Virus record (IMG/VR): IMGVR_UViG_2711768058_000006
Reading direction: 5' to 3' (one strand)
Source: a virus
Lineage: Duplodnaviria; Heunggongvirae; Uroviricota; Caudoviricetes
Length of the DNA: 6,041 nt
Position 1 is the first letter of the stretch; each line of letters begins with the position of its first letter. Shown here one piece after another: positions 1-6,041 of the stretch. A program made the position numbers and the translations under genes. Below the pieces are notes generated by a model, which saw nothing but the letters and a program-made list of their open reading frames with translations, was not told where the DNA came from and did no database searches.

Positions 1-1286
1 ATCTCTGTGAACTTACACAGCCTAACCAATACTTAATCTGTGATTCTTACGGTAACTACTATTTACGGATCACGCTGCCTGTGTATATGCAGCCCTTTTT
101 TGAAGGAAAAAGGACGTTTGTCAGGAGTCTGCACACAAGTAATCTTCGTGTTGCACGTAGAAAGCGTGATCAGATTGCAGATGAATACCATTGCTTACGG
201 GAGAGTGTTGCCCCTGTAAACAGCACAATAGAGAACACGCTGGAGCTATTACGCAGTAAGGCTAAATACGCCAAAACAGCTACCAGAATGCAAGATACAG
301 CGTCTTCGTGTCCGTCATTGCTTAAAATTCTTGAAATCTACCTGACAATTAACAGCACGAAGAAGAAGCCAGCCACTTTAGCTAAGGCAAGAAAAGCGGT
401 AGAGATGTTTCTCTCCTACCGTAAAAAGCCTGATATTGCATTGCAAGATGTGAGCCGCACCACTGTTACAGGCTGGATTGAACACATGCAAAAAACCCTT
501 TCACAACAATCAATTGCAAATTATATCAGCCCAATGGCCCAGCTATGGGAGTTAGCTTCATCACGTTACCACGATGCGCCAGAAAGGGCGCTCTCCCCCT
601 GGCGAGGGCATAGGCTTGATGTGGCACAAAGTAGAGAGAGCTACGAGGCATTTTCTAACAAAGAGCTATTGCAGGTGTTGCAAGTATTTTCCGGTAATTC
701 AGCAGAAAACAAAGAAATGATGGCTTTGTGTCTTATCGGTTTATATACAGGTATGCGGATCAATGAGATAGCAAGTCTCACAATAGACGATGTGAAAGAG
801 ATCGAAGGTGTGCTGTGTTTTGAAATCACACAGGGAAAAACGAAAGCTGCGGCACGTGTTGTGCCTGTGCATAGCCTTATCACTCCGTTGGTGTTATCTC
901 TTCGTGAAAAGCCTCACAATGGCTTTTTGTTCTATCACGCCAGCATCACAGAACGTGCTGATGGTAAACGTTCCACGTGGCACACGCAGAGATTTACAAG
1001 AGCTAAACGAAAGGCTTTAGGGGAAAAGGGAACAGAAAGGAAGGTGTTTCATTCTCTGAGACACGGAGTAGCACAGCTTCTTGATCGAAATCAAATTCCA
1101 GAAGACAGGATCGCCCTTCTCCTGGGCCATACACGCGGCAATACAGAGACATTCCGCACATATAGCAAGAATGCAGCTTCTCCAGTAGAGCTTAAAAACT
1201 ATATTGAGCTTCTACGCTACCCTGAAATAGAGAAAGGCTTATCAATCAATAAAAAATCAAATTTAAGGCGTAAAACAACGCCATAG
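1..1286 (+). CDS. int: Tyrosine-type site-specific integrase (lambda Int-like), 5' partial; frame is open from nt 3 to the window edge
   Basis: The frame of the 81..1286 ORF has no stop back to nt 3 and no ATG or SD before 87, so the gene most likely starts left of the window. The upstream in-frame translation ...NQYLICDSYGNYYLRITLPVYMQPFFEGKRTFVRSLHT resembles the lambda Int arm-binding N-terminus (NGYYCYRDPRTGKEFGLG, from memory). The C-terminal catalytic signatures are present: LYTGMRINE (box I Arg), HSLRHGVAQLL (H-x-x-R) and LLGHTRGNTETFRTY (His plus Tyr nucleophile). Stop is TAG at 1284-1286. Confidence 0.9.
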   Translation, partial: LCELTQPNQYLICDSYGNYYLRITLPVYMQPFFEGKRTFVRSLHTSNLRVARRKRDQIADEYHCLRESVAPVNSTIENTLELLRSKAKYAKTATRMQDTASSCPSLLKILEIYLTINSTKKKPATLAKARKAVEMFLSYRKKPDIALQDVSRTTVTGWIEHMQKTLSQQSIANYISPMAQLWELASSRYHDAPERALSPWRGHRLDVAQSRESYEAFSNKELLQVLQVFSGNSAENKEMMALCLIGLYTGMRINEIASLTIDDVKEIEGVLCFEITQGKTKAAARVVPVHSLITPLVLSLREKPHNGFLFYHASITERADGKRSTWHTQRFTRAKRKALGEKGTERKVFHSLRHGVAQLLDRNQIPEDRIALLLGHTRGNTETFRTYSKNAASPVELKNYIELLRYPEIEKGLSINKKSNLRRKTTP

Positions 1287-1293
1287 ACGCAAT

Positions 1294-1327
1294 AAAGAGG
1301 CTTCAACATAGATTGGTAGCCTCTTTT
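1294..1327. terminator. Candidate bidirectional intrinsic terminator between the convergent integrase and 237-aa genes
   Basis: Perfect 9-bp inverted repeat AAAGAGGCT (1294-1302) / AGCCTCTTT (1318-1326) around a 15-nt loop. The 3' arm ends in CTCTTTT on the + strand and is followed by TTTATT on the - strand. The loop is unusually long, so strength is uncertain. Confidence 0.4.
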
Positions 1328-1367
1328 ACAATTACATCGTTACAGAGCGTTTTATAGGCGTTTACGG

Positions 1368-2081
1368 CTATTCCTGCTTAAAGGCAGGCGTAATAGTATC
1401 TTCACCTTCACTACTTGATTTTTCAGTGTTAACACGTTTTTTCATATTCGCCCCGATGTTCTTAGATGGCTGTGTTTTGATAGCTACAGTGTTTACTGTG
1501 CCATAAGACACTAATCTGATCTGTTCAAATTCCAAATCAAATACCAGAGATTCGCTTGCCTCTTCTGTGTATTCGATGCCTGTTAAAACAACGTTCTCAA
1601 AAGTTTTATTTTCTGTAACAAGAAGAAAAGGCTGTCTACTGTCCATAATCTGATTCAGGTAATCTATAGCCAATGATCTTCTGTTCCCGTTCACCCCTGC
1701 ACTCTTTAACAAGCCAGGATCGCTTTTAATCGGTGTTTCAGTGATACGCCCTTTAAGAGAAAACTTATTATTCTTCACTTGAACGTGATCAGACACAGTA
1801 GCACCATTTTCTACGGGGTAGCTTGTGACATCTGCCGAACGTCTCACGTTCACATCGTCTACACTATCAAAGGCCAGTGCCATATAATTTTCATAAACGT
1901 CATTACCAGAAGATGCCAAGCCACTGGTAACAATAGCAAATCCATTCTCTCCTTTTGTTTTATTAGCTTTGCTATTTTCGTTTTTTGTAGAATTTATATC
2001 TTGTTCTGCTTTGTAAACAGCCTGAACGTGTTGTTCTGGGGAGTTTGCTGCACGTATGGTTAAAATCCCGGCGGTCGCCAT
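1368..2081 (-). CDS. Hypothetical protein, 237 aa; possible virion or tail-tip component (weak call)
   Basis: Intact ORF with ATG at 2079-2081 preceded by AAGGAAA, and last gene of the leftward operon. Lys/Asn/Ser-rich N-terminus and acidic C-terminal tail. The segment QPFLLVTENKTFENVVLTGIEYTEEASESLVFDLEFEQIRLV loosely resembles the C-terminus of lambda minor tail protein M (...VEFSAEFEQVVN, from memory). This is motif-level only. Confidence 0.6.
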   Translation of the reverse strand: MATAGILTIRAANSPEQHVQAVYKAEQDINSTKNENSKANKTKGENGFAIVTSGLASSGNDVYENYMALAFDSVDDVNVRRSADVTSYPVENGATVSDHVQVKNNKFSLKGRITETPIKSDPGLLKSAGVNGNRRSLAIDYLNQIMDSRQPFLLVTENKTFENVVLTGIEYTEEASESLVFDLEFEQIRLVSYGTVNTVAIKTQPSKNIGANMKKRVNTEKSSSEGEDTITPAFKQE

Positions 2082-2103
2082 AATAATAATTTTCCTTGTA
2101 ATG

Positions 2104-3948
2104 TTATGGGGGGAATTCCCCGCCGTTGGATTGTCCTGATAAGCTGGTTAATGTTAATGATTTCAAGAAGCTATCCCGACTTGCTCTCGCTGTAAAATCC
2201 ACATAATCGCTTAATCTTGATGTGTCAGAATTAATAGTAAGCGGAACCTCTGTTACCACTTCAAATGTAGGATTCAGATTAAACACAGGAGATAAATTAT
2301 AAGCCGGAGTTGTCATTGCAAGATTATTTAAAGCACCCTGTTTGAGATTGGTTATCGGTGCTTCGCTGACTGACATTTTTACATCTGACACAGAAGATTT
2401 ATCATCGAAAAGCAATCCCTTAATCGTGTTAAAGAGAGAATGACTATTATCAGGTGTAGTTGTTGCAGTGCCAGCGCCTTTATATTGATCAGGAACGAGA
2501 TCAGAAAGATTTTGTTTCATTCCATCATTACTCAAAGGCGGTGCATCCCCCATATTTTTCTGAATAGCTTCCGTCTTATCATCATTACGATTAAACCAGT
2601 TTACAATCTTCATAATAGCTTCAAAGAGACTTCCTGTAGCTTCTCCTAGCTTCGTAAAATACGGAGTGAGATTAGAAAGGTTTTTCATAAACTCTTCCGT
2701 TACTTTTGGATCAAGAGATTTCATAAAGCCGTCTACGAATGCTACTTGCCTTGCATCAGAAAGCTGTGAAAGCTGTCTGTTTAGTTCTCTGAATTTAACA
2801 ATAGAGTCTTGCTGTGTTTCTGTTAGCCATTGTCCGGCGGCTTTTTGCTGATTAATACTTTCTTGTACATCTTTAACGGAACGTTGCCAATATTTTGACG
2901 TAAGCATCAAATCATCGCCCAGGTCTTCTAAACGTTGTCCAATTTGGGAGTCTGAAAAACCTTTTTTCATCATTCCATTAACAGCCTTAGAAATTAATCC
3001 GGCTGGATTATCAGCAAATTTTTTAAGGTCGCTTTTGTTAATAACACCGATGTTTAGAAGTTCATTAATAGCGTTATCACCGCCTTTCCATTCGCCGCCT
3101 TTACCAGTTTTTTTATCGACTACATATTCAGCTTCACTATAGGATTTTGCGGCACGTTCCCTAACATCTTTCATCTGATCCAGGTATTTCCTAGCCCCTT
3201 GATCACCCATCATAGAGTCAACGCCGTTTCTATACGCCCATTCTGTAATATTATACATCTGGTTAACGTCTACACCGCCAAGCCTTGCACGTTGGATTAA
3301 TTCTCCTTGTGTTTCAGCATTAGCGAAGCTGTTAGCCATAAATTCAGAGGTTTTACTAACAGCCATCACGCCAGCAGCAGCCGTAGCGCCTCCAAATAAC
3401 AGAGCGCCCATAGTGGCGGAGTTCCCTGATCCTCCCTTAACGGGGGCTAATTGAGCTTTTCTGTTGCCATTAATCTTACGTTGTTGCTGTTGTAGGCGTT
3501 TCATCTGACTATTCATACGTGCAAGCGAGATAGCCCCTTGCTCATATTGTTTTGCTATCTCTCTAGCCTGTGCAATAGCTTTGTATTGTTCCGCTACAGA
3601 GAGGCGGTGCATTGCACTGATAGAGCTTGACACATCGAGGAGCTTTAATTCTGCTTTCTCCTTACGTGCTGCTATTTGTTGCTGTTGCCTTGCCTGTGCT
3701 CTTGCTGCGGCAGCTTGTGCTCTTTGATTCTGTTTTTCGTTTTTCGCTTTCTGTTGAGCAATCTTGTCTACCTCGTTTTGTGCTTTCTTATAGCCTTTAG
3801 TGACAGTATCGAATCTTAATTTAGCTGGCTTGATATTTTCTGCGAATTCCTTTAAGCCTGTAATAGAGTCTTTCGCTTTTTTCAAGCTGTCTTTATCTAC
3901 ACTAAATGTAACTGTGTTCTTAATTTTAGAAGTGTTAATTTCTAACAT
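2104..3948 (-). CDS. Large coiled-coil protein, 614 aa; tail tape-measure-like or internal virion protein-like (hypothesis)
   Basis: ATG at 3946-3948 with SD AAGGGGA 6 nt upstream. The N-terminal third is Q/A/R/K-rich low-complexity coiled coil (QKAKNEKQNQRAQAAAARAQARQQQQIAARKEKAELK, about 3650-3720). This is followed by a Gly/Ala-rich hydrophobic stretch GGSGNSATMGALLFGGATAAAGVMAVS (about 3355-3435) and a long, apparently helical C-terminal region. That combination is typical of phage tape-measure or minor tail proteins, but no family is confirmed. Confidence 0.7.
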   Translation of the reverse strand: MLEINTSKIKNTVTFSVDKDSLKKAKDSITGLKEFAENIKPAKLRFDTVTKGYKKAQNEVDKIAQQKAKNEKQNQRAQAAAARAQARQQQQIAARKEKAELKLLDVSSSISAMHRLSVAEQYKAIAQAREIAKQYEQGAISLARMNSQMKRLQQQQRKINGNRKAQLAPVKGGSGNSATMGALLFGGATAAAGVMAVSKTSEFMANSFANAETQGELIQRARLGGVDVNQMYNITEWAYRNGVDSMMGDQGARKYLDQMKDVRERAAKSYSEAEYVVDKKTGKGGEWKGGDNAINELLNIGVINKSDLKKFADNPAGLISKAVNGMMKKGFSDSQIGQRLEDLGDDLMLTSKYWQRSVKDVQESINQQKAAGQWLTETQQDSIVKFRELNRQLSQLSDARQVAFVDGFMKSLDPKVTEEFMKNLSNLTPYFTKLGEATGSLFEAIMKIVNWFNRNDDKTEAIQKNMGDAPPLSNDGMKQNLSDLVPDQYKGAGTATTTPDNSHSLFNTIKGLLFDDKSSVSDVKMSVSEAPITNLKQGALNNLAMTTPAYNLSPVFNLNPTFEVVTEVPLTINSDTSRLSDYVDFTARASRDSFLKSLTLTSLSGQSNGGEFPP

Positions 3949-3962
3949 TTAAAATCCCCTTA

Positions 3963-4166
3963 TTAATCATTTTTATCACCTTCTTTGCTTAAGAAATGGT
4001 GTAGAGCCTGATCAATGCTCTCGTTTAATCTGAACATACGGGCTTTTACGCCTTCATAGGGAACATCTAAAAGAGAACATAGATATTTCAGATTTAACAA
4101 GCCTCTAGAATCATTAGCATCTAAATGTACGTGTACACCATTTTTTGATTTCAGAATCACTTCCAT
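3963..4166 (-). CDS. Small hypothetical protein, 67 aa
   Basis: ATG at 4164-4166 with a strong SD (AGAGGTGA, about 8 nt spacing). Its stop lies 14 bp before the 614-aa start, and it sits immediately downstream of the 4209-4235 hairpin. No recognisable motif. Confidence 0.55.
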   Translation of the reverse strand: MEVILKSKNGVHVHLDANDSRGLLNLKYLCSLLDVPYEGVKARMFRLNESIDQALHHFLSKEGDKND

Positions 4167-4190
4167 ATTTTAATCACCTCTCAAAATTTA

Positions 4191-4235
4191 AAAAAATAAA
4201 TAAAAAAAGGCGAAGCGTGAATACACGCCACGCCT
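4191..4235 (-). terminator. Rho-independent terminator or attenuator on the minus strand, immediately after the 342-aa gene
   Basis: GC-rich hairpin: + strand GGCGAAGCGTG (4209-4219), loop AATA, CACGCCACGCC (4224-4234), giving 9 of 11 pairs. On the minus strand it is followed by a long U-tract (+ strand A-run 4191-4208, AAAAAAATAAATAAAAAAA). Its position inside the operon suggests partial termination, which would give higher expression of the upstream 120-aa and 342-aa genes. Confidence 0.6.
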
Positions 4236-4253
4236 CTATTACACGTTAAAATA

Positions 4254-5282
4254 TTATTTAACAGTGATTTGAACGGAGAAGCCTACACCGTGGTTTACCA
4301 CCATCTGGCTATTCTCGGTCACTACGTGCACTGCGTCGCCGCGAGAACCCTCATAACTATAGCTATACACCTCAGCAGGAGCGGCATTAATCAGTTCAAA
4401 GGTGCTGGAAGCTGCCCCGTAGATGCTCTGGTAGACGTTAGAGAATTTAGAGAACTTCGGAATCGCAACCGCATCAGAAGTCATATGTGCAAGGTGTAGC
4501 GGATCTACCAGTTTAACAACATCAATGTTAGTTCCTGGAATAGTGAACGCTGTCACTCCTGGTAGCAGGTCACGACGCTGATACACAACATTCCCTTCTT
4601 CCAGTGGGCTTACATACTGGAATGCGTTTGCCATACCAGCAGAGAATCGAATTGCAGAGAAGGCTTCCGGCTTACAGAAAACAACAATACGCTCTACAGC
4701 CGCCGCCTGACTCTGTGCTTTTTCGATAATGTCAGTAGCAATCTGATCAAATTCTTTAAAAATCTTCGTGGTGTCAGTGCTGGAAGCGTTCACAGTGGCT
4801 TTCATAGCTGATACGTTAAACAGCTTGCCCCACTCAATTAACACATCATCAGTTTTAGGCGTGTAAGTTTTGCCAGAGAACAAAGAAGCCGCCAACACGC
4901 TCTCTTTAGTACGCTGGAATGCAACATTGTGTTTAGCGATATATTCCGCATAGATATCAGTGAGTGTTTCCTGAAAATCAGTGCCAGGCTTACGCTTGCC
5001 TTGAACATCAGAAGGTCTAATCACATCCTCACGAAGAAAATACGGGATTTCGATCAGCCATTCTTTACCTTGTTCTCGCTTAGTAACGTTGTGTTCAGAA
5101 GAGAAACGAGAGGTTTCTTTGTTGAACAGAGATTCGTTGCTTTCGACAAGCTGGGAAACAGCTACTTTATGAGAACTAACGCCCACCGGATCAGTGAAGT
5201 CGAGAGTAGAAAGTAGATAATTTCTAGTGCTATGCGCAGAGAACAAAGGAGCTAAATCAACGTAATCATTACCTAGAATCAT
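4254..5282 (-). CDS. Putative major capsid protein, HK97-fold-like, 342 aa (hypothesis)
   Basis: ATG at 5280-5282 with SD AAAGGAA. The internal segment AVERIVVFCKPEAFSAIRFSAGMANAFQYVSPLEEGN parallels a segment I recall from T7 gp10 (DRVFYCDPDSYSAILAALMPNAANYAALIDPEKGS) and, more loosely, lambda gpE (IIVFDPKGWALFRSF). Length is close to lambda E (341 aa). The gene is followed by a strong terminator, consistent with a highly expressed structural protein. Not verified by any search. Confidence 0.7.
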   Translation of the reverse strand: MILGNDYVDLAPLFSAHSTRNYLLSTLDFTDPVGVSSHKVAVSQLVESNESLFNKETSRFSSEHNVTKREQGKEWLIEIPYFLREDVIRPSDVQGKRKPGTDFQETLTDIYAEYIAKHNVAFQRTKESVLAASLFSGKTYTPKTDDVLIEWGKLFNVSAMKATVNASSTDTTKIFKEFDQIATDIIEKAQSQAAAVERIVVFCKPEAFSAIRFSAGMANAFQYVSPLEEGNVVYQRRDLLPGVTAFTIPGTNIDVVKLVDPLHLAHMTSDAVAIPKFSKFSNVYQSIYGAASSTFELINAAPAEVYSYSYEGSRGDAVHVVTENSQMVVNHGVGFSVQITVK

Positions 5283-5300
5283 TTATTATTATTCCTTTTA

Positions 5301-5663
5301 TTAAGAAGTGAAAACAGAGTGGAACCCTTCAAGCTGGAAGCCTTTTTTAATTAATGCTGTTTTTGCTGCTTCACTTACAGCATTCAGCGCATCAGCTTTG
5401 ATGCAGACAAGGCCAGCATTAGCACGAAGCACATCTACAGGCTTGTTTTCTCCAGCCGTTACAAATTCACTCATAACAACATAGATATCATCTCCTGATT
5501 CATATTTAGCGCCCGTGCTGGTGATCAAGTCTCCGCACTCAACATCAGCAGGAAGAGAAGCAAAAACCTTGCTTTCTACAGAGGCAAACGGATCAGTACA
5601 ATAACTTACAATATCTGTGAAAGTCTTTCGAACTGGAAATAGAGCGTCTAAATCAATAATCAT
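5301..5663 (-). CDS. Hypothetical protein, 120 aa; possible capsid accessory (decoration or scaffold-like) protein, based on position only
   Basis: ATG at 5661-5663 with a canonical SD (AAGGAGA, 8 nt spacing). It sits directly upstream of the capsid-like gene, analogous to a small head-accessory gene preceding a capsid gene. No sequence motif recognised. Confidence 0.65.
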   Translation of the reverse strand: MIIDLDALFPVRKTFTDIVSYCTDPFASVESKVFASLPADVECGDLITSTGAKYESGDDIYVVMSEFVTAGENKPVDVLRANAGLVCIKADALNAVSEAAKTALIKKGFQLEGFHSVFTS

Positions 5664-5872
5664 TTAGTAATCTCCTTAGCTTTTAATTTGATTAATTCAT
5701 TAAGGGAAGGTGTAGACGGAGAAGAAGGAGAAAAATATTTTTCAACACATCTTTCTACTTCCTCGACAGAACACCCAGCGTATTTAGCTACCATTTCGGT
5801 AATTTGTGGAGTAATTCGCAGCATTTCATTTTTATATTTTATGATTTGCTCTTTATCGTTTAAAAACAACAT
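5660..5872 (-). CDS. Small hypothetical protein, 70 aa; possible helix-turn-helix DNA-binding protein
   Basis: First gene of the leftward operon. ATG at 5870-5872 with a weak SD (AAGGT). Its TGA stop overlaps the ATG of the 120-aa gene (ATGA at 5660-5663), suggesting translational coupling. The segment ITEMVAKYAGCSVEEVERCVEKY has an HTH-like helix-turn-helix pattern. Confidence 0.55.
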   Translation of the reverse strand: MLFLNDKEQIIKYKNEMLRITPQITEMVAKYAGCSVEEVERCVEKYFSPSSPSTPSLNELIKLKAKEITK

Positions 5873-6028
5873 TTATATAAACCTTGTTACCTTGTTTAAA
5901 GTAAGAAATACAACTTTTAAGTTGCATAACGGGCAAAATAAAAGGCAGCATTTAAAGCCGCCTTTGTAATTACCCTATGTTATGCACACTCCAAGATGTA
6001 TGCATAACAAAGGAAAGAGGTATAGGTA
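5873..6028. promoter_or_regulatory. Divergent promoter/operator region with repeated operator-like half-sites
   Basis: Perfect inverted repeat TGTTATGCA (5978-5986) / TGCATAACA (6001-6009) with a 14-bp spacer. A third copy of the half-site, TGCATAAC, lies at 5923-5930. There is a dyad CAACTT-TT-AAGTTG at 5911-5924 and a tandem repeat CCTTGTTA/CCTTGTTT at 5882-5897 next to the 70-aa start. Exact -35/-10 elements could not be assigned with confidence. Confidence 0.45.
5931..5966 (-). terminator. Terminator-like hairpin on the minus strand inside the right intergenic region
   Basis: Minus-strand sequence AAAGGCGGC-tttaaat-GCTGCCTTT (9-bp stem with one G-U pair, + strand 5941-5966) followed by TTTTATTTTG (+ strand 5931-5940). 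Confidence 0.35.
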
Positions 6029-6041
6029 ATGACTCCAACTT
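6029..6041 (+). CDS. Possible 5' end of a rightward gene, truncated by the window edge; product unknown
   Basis: ATG at 6029-6031 preceded by AAAGGAAAGAGG (AGAGG 8 nt upstream). Only 4 codons are visible. The alternative is that a minus-strand gene from beyond the window ends at the TAA at 5969-5971 (that frame is open from 5972 to 6041). Confidence 0.25.

Follow-up and report, generated by a model that had tools for sequence, protein, structure and literature searches.

A repeat-rich region ahead of the capsid/tail operon of a satellite-like Enterobacterales island as the leader of a probable termination-controlled transcript

Inverted and direct repeats crowd positions 5873 to 6028 of a 6,041-nt stretch of DNA (the window; IMG/VR virus record IMGVR_UViG_2711768058_000006, class Caudoviricetes), and the question that they raise is whether the leftward capsid/tail operon directly downstream is controlled by proteins bound to the DNA or through the RNA transcribed across the repeats. 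A previous, sequence-only reading proposed the former, a repressor-controlled switch governing the leftward operon and possibly a divergent regulator gene. That interpretation was partly supported: the region is constrained, noncoding, and directly upstream of the operon, which it plausibly gates, whereas a repressor switch found no support. Our analysis suggests that positions 5873 to 6024 are the downstream part of a minus-strand leader and that the structural operon is probably gated by termination and antitermination, in a layout like that of PR'-tR' in phage lambda. The control would be of a familiar type, in a satellite-like island that appears not to have been described, and its functional steps are predicted from the sequence.

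The repeats themselves were present as first described. Three copies of a TTATGCA-type half-site, GTTATGCA, fall within about 90 bp, at 5923-5930 (minus strand; copy 1), 5979-5986 (plus strand; copy 2), and 6001-6008 (minus strand; copy 3), and these are the only three in the window, TTATGCA being absent elsewhere. By our own calculation the probability of three random sites within 86 bp is ~6e-4, and an 8-mer with at least three copies arose in 2.2% of 20,000 dinucleotide shuffles of the 156-bp region. The perfect 9-bp inverted repeat and the separate 6-2-6 dyad were likewise confirmed. The 8-bp tandem repeat also exists, but it does not abut the start codon of the first gene as had been thought. 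A terminator on the minus strand (stem-loop 5965..5941) and the end of an IS1 element had both been overlooked. The features of the region are as follows.

5660..5872, minus strand: gene for a 70-amino-acid protein, first of the structural operon (from the list of open reading frames)
5881-5896: tandem repeat, ACCTTGTT twice, 8 nt from the start codon at 5870-5872; on the minus strand (5881..5896) it reads AACAAGGU twice in the RNA sense and is invariant in 18 alleles
5908..5927, minus strand: hairpin D, after the terminator, AUGCAACU-UAAA-AGUUGUAU, which is the 6-2-6 dyad and overlaps copy 1 of GTTATGCA
5911-5924: the 6-2-6 dyad, CAACTT-tt-AAGTTG, extendable to 9-nt arms (5908-5916 and 5919-5927)
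5931..5965, minus strand: intrinsic (Rho-independent) terminator, stem-loop 5941-5965 followed by UUUUAUUUUG
5974..6013, minus strand: hairpin B, 16-bp stem and 8-nt loop, with the 9-bp inverted repeat (copies 2 and 3) as its core
5978-5986 and 6001-6009: the perfect 9-bp inverted repeat, TGTTATGCA and TGCATAACA, centres at 5982 and 6005, 23 bp apart
6014..6024, minus strand: last nucleotides of the leader before the IS1 junction, from alignment with uninterrupted alleles
6025-6041: IS1 terminal inverted repeat, GGTAATGACTCCAACTT, an exact match, with the element boundary exactly at 6025

Several lines of evidence favor structure in a minus-strand RNA over sites in DNA. The in-window segment folds to -53.9 kcal/mol (z = -7.2) as minus-strand RNA, compared to -38.0 kcal/mol (z = -3.9) as plus-strand RNA, and the full leader, ~205 nt from promoter to U-run, has a folding z of -5.3. 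The 9-bp inverted repeat extends to 16-nt arms (5974-5989 and 5998-6013) that are 88% complementary, and one of the two imperfect positions in hairpin B is a G.U pair in the minus-sense RNA that becomes A-U in 8 of 18 alleles. The sole imperfect pair of hairpin D is also G.U on the minus strand, and is A-U in 4 of the 18. Across the three stems, three of four imperfect positions are G.U in the minus sense, where the plus sense has A.C (p ~0.02, own calculation). The predicted terminator has a stem of 9 pairs (5 of them G-C), a 7-nt loop, and a U-run, with 0.1 sites expected from shuffled sequence, and the same terminator was found again when the intact allele was scanned. Closest to the operon, the copy of the tandem repeat nearest the start codon supplies a Shine-Dalgarno-like AAGG 9 nt before the AUG, and a small predicted hairpin pairs the Shine-Dalgarno region with the first codons of the 70-amino-acid gene.

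Variation among Escherichia coli alleles is consistent with this view. Nucleotide diversity over 5873-6013 was 0.011 among 15 distinct alleles, compared to 0.058-0.175 at third-codon positions of the adjacent genes, which makes the region 5 to 15 times less polymorphic than those positions, and the constraint spans the whole 141 nt, beyond the motifs alone. Only four sites vary among 18 alleles, and at all four the change either falls in a loop or preserves pairing in the minus-sense RNA. One lies in the loop of the terminator, the stem of which is invariant; two, one each in hairpin B and hairpin D, convert G.U into A-U; and one turns a G-C pair into G.U in a stem enclosing the terminator. 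The change in hairpin D converts copy 1 of GTTATGCA to TTATACA (in 4 of 17 E. coli alleles), so that the third half-site is destroyed while the hairpin is improved. The distance of copy 1 from copies 2 and 3 is altered as well, by a 17-bp indel located between hairpin B and the terminator. About half of the E. coli alleles (L004, L005, L007, L008, and others) carry the insertion, ATAGGTAYRAGTTAATA in the RNA sense, between 5965 and 5966. In alleles with this insertion the terminator is symmetrically flanked by AAAATAAAA and TTTTATTAA and looks bidirectional.

The upstream part of the leader was visible in uninterrupted E. coli alleles, in which the intergenic region is 329-346 bp. A near-consensus sigma-70 promoter starts there 29 nt past the stop codon of a gene for a 112-amino-acid protein, ~140 bp beyond the end of the window. 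In the intact allele it lies on the strand of the operon (L001 21172..21144; 10/12 match) and reads TTGACA-17-TAATAT, the -10 element being of the extended (TG) type, and the leader runs ~113 nt beyond position 6024 of the window. The genome of the window presumably has this promoter as well, since an allele 100% identical up to the junction does. Just past the end of the window, the leader contains a hypervariable segment (L001 21025-21100), with (CTC)n length variation and indels of 1, 3, 6, and 9 nt.

The same layout was found well beyond E. coli. Nine relatives from eight genera (Escherichia, Enterobacter, Citrobacter, Cronobacter, Klebsiella, Dryocola, Sodalis, and Serratia) share the order upstream gene, promoter, leader, intrinsic terminator, first structural gene, as do most of the additional relatives in IMG/VR. 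The promoter follows the upstream gene by 17-29 nt (92 nt in Klebsiella) and has the form TTGACA/TTGACT-17/18-TAnnnT, with the extended -10 TG in eight of the nine; when the IMG/VR loci are included, the form is TTGACA/TTGACT-17/18-(T/C)AnnnT, with the extended -10 TG in most. All relatives share a conserved TA..GG(G) motif after the -10 element. The leaders are 200-800 nt long and unrelated in sequence. In the eight genera a terminator hairpin with a U-run precedes the first structural gene by 41-136 nt, and the sequences of the stems differ. In some relatives the space after the terminator is as small as 41-50 nt, which leaves little room for a separate promoter and argues against one.

Thirteen leaders of the Enterobacter/Citrobacter/Cronobacter type keep a hairpin before the terminator, the terminator, a hairpin after it in the relative position of hairpin D, and a hairpin formed by the Shine-Dalgarno region and start codon. 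On either side of the terminator, the hairpins carry changes that are compensatory or preserve pairing, including a compensatory CG<->UA pair in the post-terminator hairpin (5 sequences versus 5), and the hairpin at the start codon shows pair-preserving changes. In the latter, seen at L022 7160-7398 and at 12 loci related to it, the gene of the 70-amino-acid family has its first codons, AUGUUCUU, paired with the Shine-Dalgarno region, GAAGGAAC. A CCUCC-containing loop lies upstream. The pairing and the loop hint at translational control in addition to termination.

Taken together, these elements can be arranged in a model in which the strong sigma-70 promoter would be constitutive and start the structured leader of ~205 nt. 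Within the window, RNA polymerase would transcribe hairpin B, the intrinsic terminator, hairpin D, and the tandem repeat with its ribosome-binding site, in that order. Most transcripts would end at the terminator (5941-5965) and yield a short leader RNA, and the structural genes would be expressed by read-through once polymerase had become terminator resistant or termination had otherwise been relieved. Either a helper phage or the element could supply the relieving factor, and hairpins B and D may have factor-binding, processing, or stabilizing roles. A more specific version, in which the cassette is the helper-sensing switch of a widespread, undescribed family of satellite-like islands in the Enterobacterales and is opened either by a phage antiterminator that the element hijacks or by an RNA-binding protein of its own that acts on hairpin B, is speculative and we regard it as rather doubtful.

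A candidate for such an RNA-binding protein is the 136-amino-acid family (L002 21531-21941) encoded upstream of the region. Its members have an N terminus rich in arginine and lysine, such as MSRKERNVLARIERQ, and a conserved KPRKRKEY patch, features that make a nucleic acid-binding regulator possible. A search returned 387 homologues, mostly from Klebsiella and all annotated as hypothetical, and the structure model (predicted local distance difference test [pLDDT] score, 57) was too poor for a fold search.

Several points weigh against termination control. The promoter lies outside the window, and IS1 intervenes in the window's genome. Both promoter and terminator are predictions from consensus, and a poor-consensus, activator-dependent promoter is possible in the 70 nt after the terminator. 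Neither Pfam nor PHROG gave a match to a Q- or N-type antiterminator among the 112-, 136-, 92-, 229-, 55-, 58-, and 52-amino-acid proteins of the element, and the 112-amino-acid protein had no match among PDB sequences. No double compensatory substitution was seen in the E. coli clade, because variation there is too low, and the case for RNA in that clade thus rests on strand asymmetry and one-sided changes. Furthermore, changes between G.U and A-U also raise the dyad symmetry of the DNA, so by themselves they do not exclude a DNA site.

The resemblance to lambda lies in the order and spacing of the parts. When lambda was examined with the same tools, the stop codon of Q was followed after 43 nt by TTGACT-17-TAAATT, a leader of ~190 nt, and tR'. 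The island likewise has a strong sigma-70 promoter shortly after the preceding gene (29 nt versus 43 nt after Q) and a leader of similar length (~205 nt versus ~190 nt) that stops at an intrinsic terminator in front of the late or structural genes. In Shiga-toxin phages the expectation is that PR' is continuously active and that the terminator determines expression (PMC7547250). The differences from lambda are that no gene of the Q family was found next to the promoter with Pfam or PHROG, that the leaders of relatives span 200-800 nt, that the terminator lies 41-136 nt from the first structural gene, and that there is no lysis cassette. The host of the cassette also differs, being an island of ~12 kb with capsid, tape-measure-like, and Dit-like genes, in which portal and terminase genes were not detected. 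The sequence TGCATAACGG is shared with lambda tR'; relative to the transcript, however, it lies on the other strand, for which reason the match was judged coincidental.

Inspection of the E. coli leader by eye revealed no LexA box, no RfaH ops element, and no lambda boxA or boxB. Rfam returned nothing relevant at E<=5 over L001 20700-21400, nor at the gathering score over five whole loci. A blastn comparison of the intact leader with 50,697 phage genomes gave only short, AT-rich chance matches and thus no recognizable mimicry of a phage late region, and the whole window had no phage match.

The most direct alternative is that the GTTATGCA copies, the CAAC-N6-GTTG dyad, or both are DNA sites through which a repressor or activator controls a weak promoter between the terminator and the start codon. 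The three exact 8-mers form a cluster and occur nowhere else in the window or the element, which does encode proteins of the helix-turn-helix (HTH) type, and an element-encoded regulator could be, for example, the winged-helix-like 92-amino-acid protein or the 70-amino-acid protein. In addition, the dyad TACAACTTTT(AA/TT)GTTGC occurs twice in the intact allele, at 5909-5925 of the window (within hairpin D) and at L001 21180-21196, with 15 of 17 positions identical, and the second copy stands 8 nt upstream of the -35 element of the strong promoter. A TTAATGCA-like motif also follows the terminator in Enterobacter, Citrobacter, and Cronobacter relatives. However, a scan of 5873-6028 found no promoter-like site on either strand, no divergent regulator is adjacent, and GTTATGCA is absent from the rest of the 12-kb E. 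coli element, including its other intergenic regions, so the recurrence for which the sequence-only reading had proposed a check did not materialize. Nor is the motif conserved in other genera, three of which have isolated TTA(A)TGCA copies. Within E. coli, copy 1 is lost in the TTATACA alleles, and the 17-bp indel between copies 1 and 2 shifts their helical phasing. Half-site centers 23 bp apart are also unusual for a dimeric HTH operator. Finally, all 141 nt are conserved rather than the sites alone, and folding is strongly strand asymmetric. Control through DNA sites seems quite unlikely. A CI/Cro-type divergent switch, which the region resembles in having repeated 8- to 9-bp motifs with dyad symmetry before an operon, was rejected, because the right flank consists of IS1 or codirectional genes; the lack of an internal promoter-like site, the variable spacing, the dispensability of one site, and the uniqueness of the motif set it further apart from such switches. 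As a 17-nt direct repeat, TACAACTTTT(AA/TT)GTTGC brackets the promoter-leader-terminator cassette, its copies lying 271 bp apart; possible explanations are a site for a protein, two weak hairpins, or the trace of an exchange of modules.

The unit from promoter to terminator might also be mainly a gene for a small regulatory RNA (sRNA), which we consider unlikely, although such a model is compatible with termination control and not exclusive of it. A strong promoter and an efficient-looking terminator do bound a highly structured RNA of ~205 nt, and terminated PR' leaders are known to act as sRNAs, StxS being the product of early termination of the PR' transcript of a Shiga-toxin phage (PMC7547250). 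The layout seen here would be expected to yield, as a constitutive by-product, a short and structured RNA with its end at the late terminator, but there is no sequence or Rfam relationship to StxS. In an immunity-RNA form of the model, one short copy would pair with complementary copies upstream and downstream and thereby cause termination or block translation. The precedent is the immunity of satellite P4, in which CI RNA (seqB), from the PLE leader, pairs with seqA and seqC; it is related to the C4 antisense RNA of P1 and P7. Both systems belong to satellite-type elements of E. coli and combine a constitutive promoter (here predicted) and premature termination with two sense copies and one complementary copy in the leader, since the order copy 3 (sense), copy 2 (complementary), terminator, copy 1 (sense) recalls seqA, seqB, and seqC. 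Copy 2 with an adjoining GGG could pair with CCC plus copy 1, and a GGGUAA/UUGCCC stem is predicted. This likeness is superficial: the arrangement is present in the allele of the window, but the downstream copy is lost in some alleles, and a search for the three-copy repeat around the terminator found no counterpart in other genera. Moreover, Rfam gave no match to C4/CI antisense RNA at E<=5 or at the gathering score, a structural rather than a replication operon would be gated, and leaders of 200-800 nt are atypical for one conserved sRNA. Very improbable, in our estimate, is a role of the repeats as a packaging-recognition (cosB- or pac-like) site for the 70-amino-acid protein, in the manner of lambda gpNu1, which binds R sites beside its own gene. 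The region does resemble lambda cosB, with three short repeats, one inverted, shortly before the gene that opens the structural operon, and in the model of the 70-amino-acid protein the segment H2-turn-H3 resembles an HTH, the top fold matches being homeodomain-like, though not significant (E>1; pLDDT 67). Against this, none of the element's genes gave a match to a terminase, portal, or Nu1-type family, relatives with homologous 70-amino-acid proteins do not conserve the repeats, and copy 1 is dispensable.

If termination control is correct, the capsid and tail genes of this island family are controlled at transcription termination. The known satellites, such as P4 and the phage-inducible chromosomal islands (PICIs), use promoter repression or activation. 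Termination control would provide a concrete handle for finding the inducing phage. The locus also calls for caution, in that inverted repeats before an operon were read as operators when strand asymmetry, allele variation, and the architecture across genera point to RNA.

The right edge of the window explains why a divergent gene had appeared to be present. The plus-strand ATG at 6029 that, with a ribosome-binding site, had been taken for its start lies inside the terminal inverted repeat of IS1, and the genes to the right share the strand of the operon both in the uninterrupted allele of E. coli JMF1 and in every relative. No minus-strand gene reads through the repeats; the transposase frame of IS1, on the minus strand, ends at ~6040. 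The 54-nt IS1 end that starts with GGTAATGACTCCAACTT matches 71,069 places annotated as IS1 transposase, and the boundaries and orientation could be read in L060, where this G is the very first base of the element and the transposase frame runs on the opposite strand. Positions 1-6024 of the window are 100% identical to E. coli JMF1 and diverge afterwards, and all 307 complete E. coli genomes with this region lose similarity to the window at 6022-6024. IS1 is thus inserted in this intergenic region of the window's genome, at about +113 of the leader; 17 nt of it fall inside the window, and its other end and the target-site duplication lie outside. The 23-mer spanning the leader/IS1 junction had no exact match in viral or metagenome contigs. 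As the insertion lies between promoter and operon, the operon is cut off from its promoter in this genome, and the switch is probably inactive there; no hybrid outward promoter was seen by eye at the junction.

Within the hypervariable segment of the leader there is a plus-strand open reading frame (ORF), MTQYLLKEEKRGAEILLPFNDKKNF, of 22-26 codons with a good Shine-Dalgarno sequence and without PGAP annotation. It is in frame in 12 of 17 alleles and frameshifted in the other 5, and no plus-strand promoter was seen for it. IS1 in the window's genome was inserted right at the ATG of this mini-ORF. At the other end of the window, an IS481-family element adjoins in JMF1, and the window looks like a short-read contig broken at insertion sequence copies.

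The window belongs to an island of ~12 kb between paoD/yagP and tRNA-Thr (thrW) (L002 14995-27282). An integrase gene is followed on the other strand by Dit-like, tape-measure-like, 67-amino-acid, gpE-like capsid, 120-amino-acid, and 70-amino-acid genes and then by the region described here. In the direction of transcription, the 70-amino-acid gene thus leads the 120-amino-acid gene, the gpE-like major capsid gene, and the 67-amino-acid, tape-measure-like, and Dit-like genes (Pfam and PHROG matches). Beyond the region, on the same strand, are the 112-, 136-, and 92-amino-acid genes, a gene for a replication initiator-like HTH protein, two small genes, and ~3 kb without ORFs, and the island also encodes a small recombinase. 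The same gene order was found in Citrobacter, Enterobacter, Klebsiella, Cronobacter, Dryocola, Sodalis, and Serratia, with capsid identities down to 37%, whereas cultured phages offered only capsid relatives with 22-25% identity. Family searches detected no portal, terminase, or protease among the island genes. From these comparisons the island looks like a member of an undescribed satellite-like family that is syntenic across at least eight genera of Enterobacterales; nothing specific on this island type or on antitermination in satellites was found in the literature. Among complete E. coli genomes, ~6% carry a member of the family.

Homologues of the 70-amino-acid protein (66-74 amino acids) hold the same position in all relatives. 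The protein had no significant match in Pfam, PHROG, or PDB sequences. Its AlphaFold model, of low confidence, has three short helices and a C-terminal helix, and all Foldseek matches had E>1. It may be a small HTH-like bundle, as judged from this model.

Insertion sequences are common in island copies, examples being a capsid gene hit by IS3 and a Rep-like gene hit by ISKpn26 (L004 5259-7623; L005 128-1290; L007 1-333; L001 22375-24266), which suggests that many copies are decaying or domesticated. The ORF-free stretch of ~3 kb by the Rep-like gene (L002 23472-26442; L001 ~26450-27350; L022 3451-3600) contains short repeats at three to four copies per 156 nt, among them AATTACAC, GTGACCTA, CCTAGGAA, and TACCCCTA, the last of which is repeated in an Enterobacter relative too. 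This stretch is probably an iteron-type origin.

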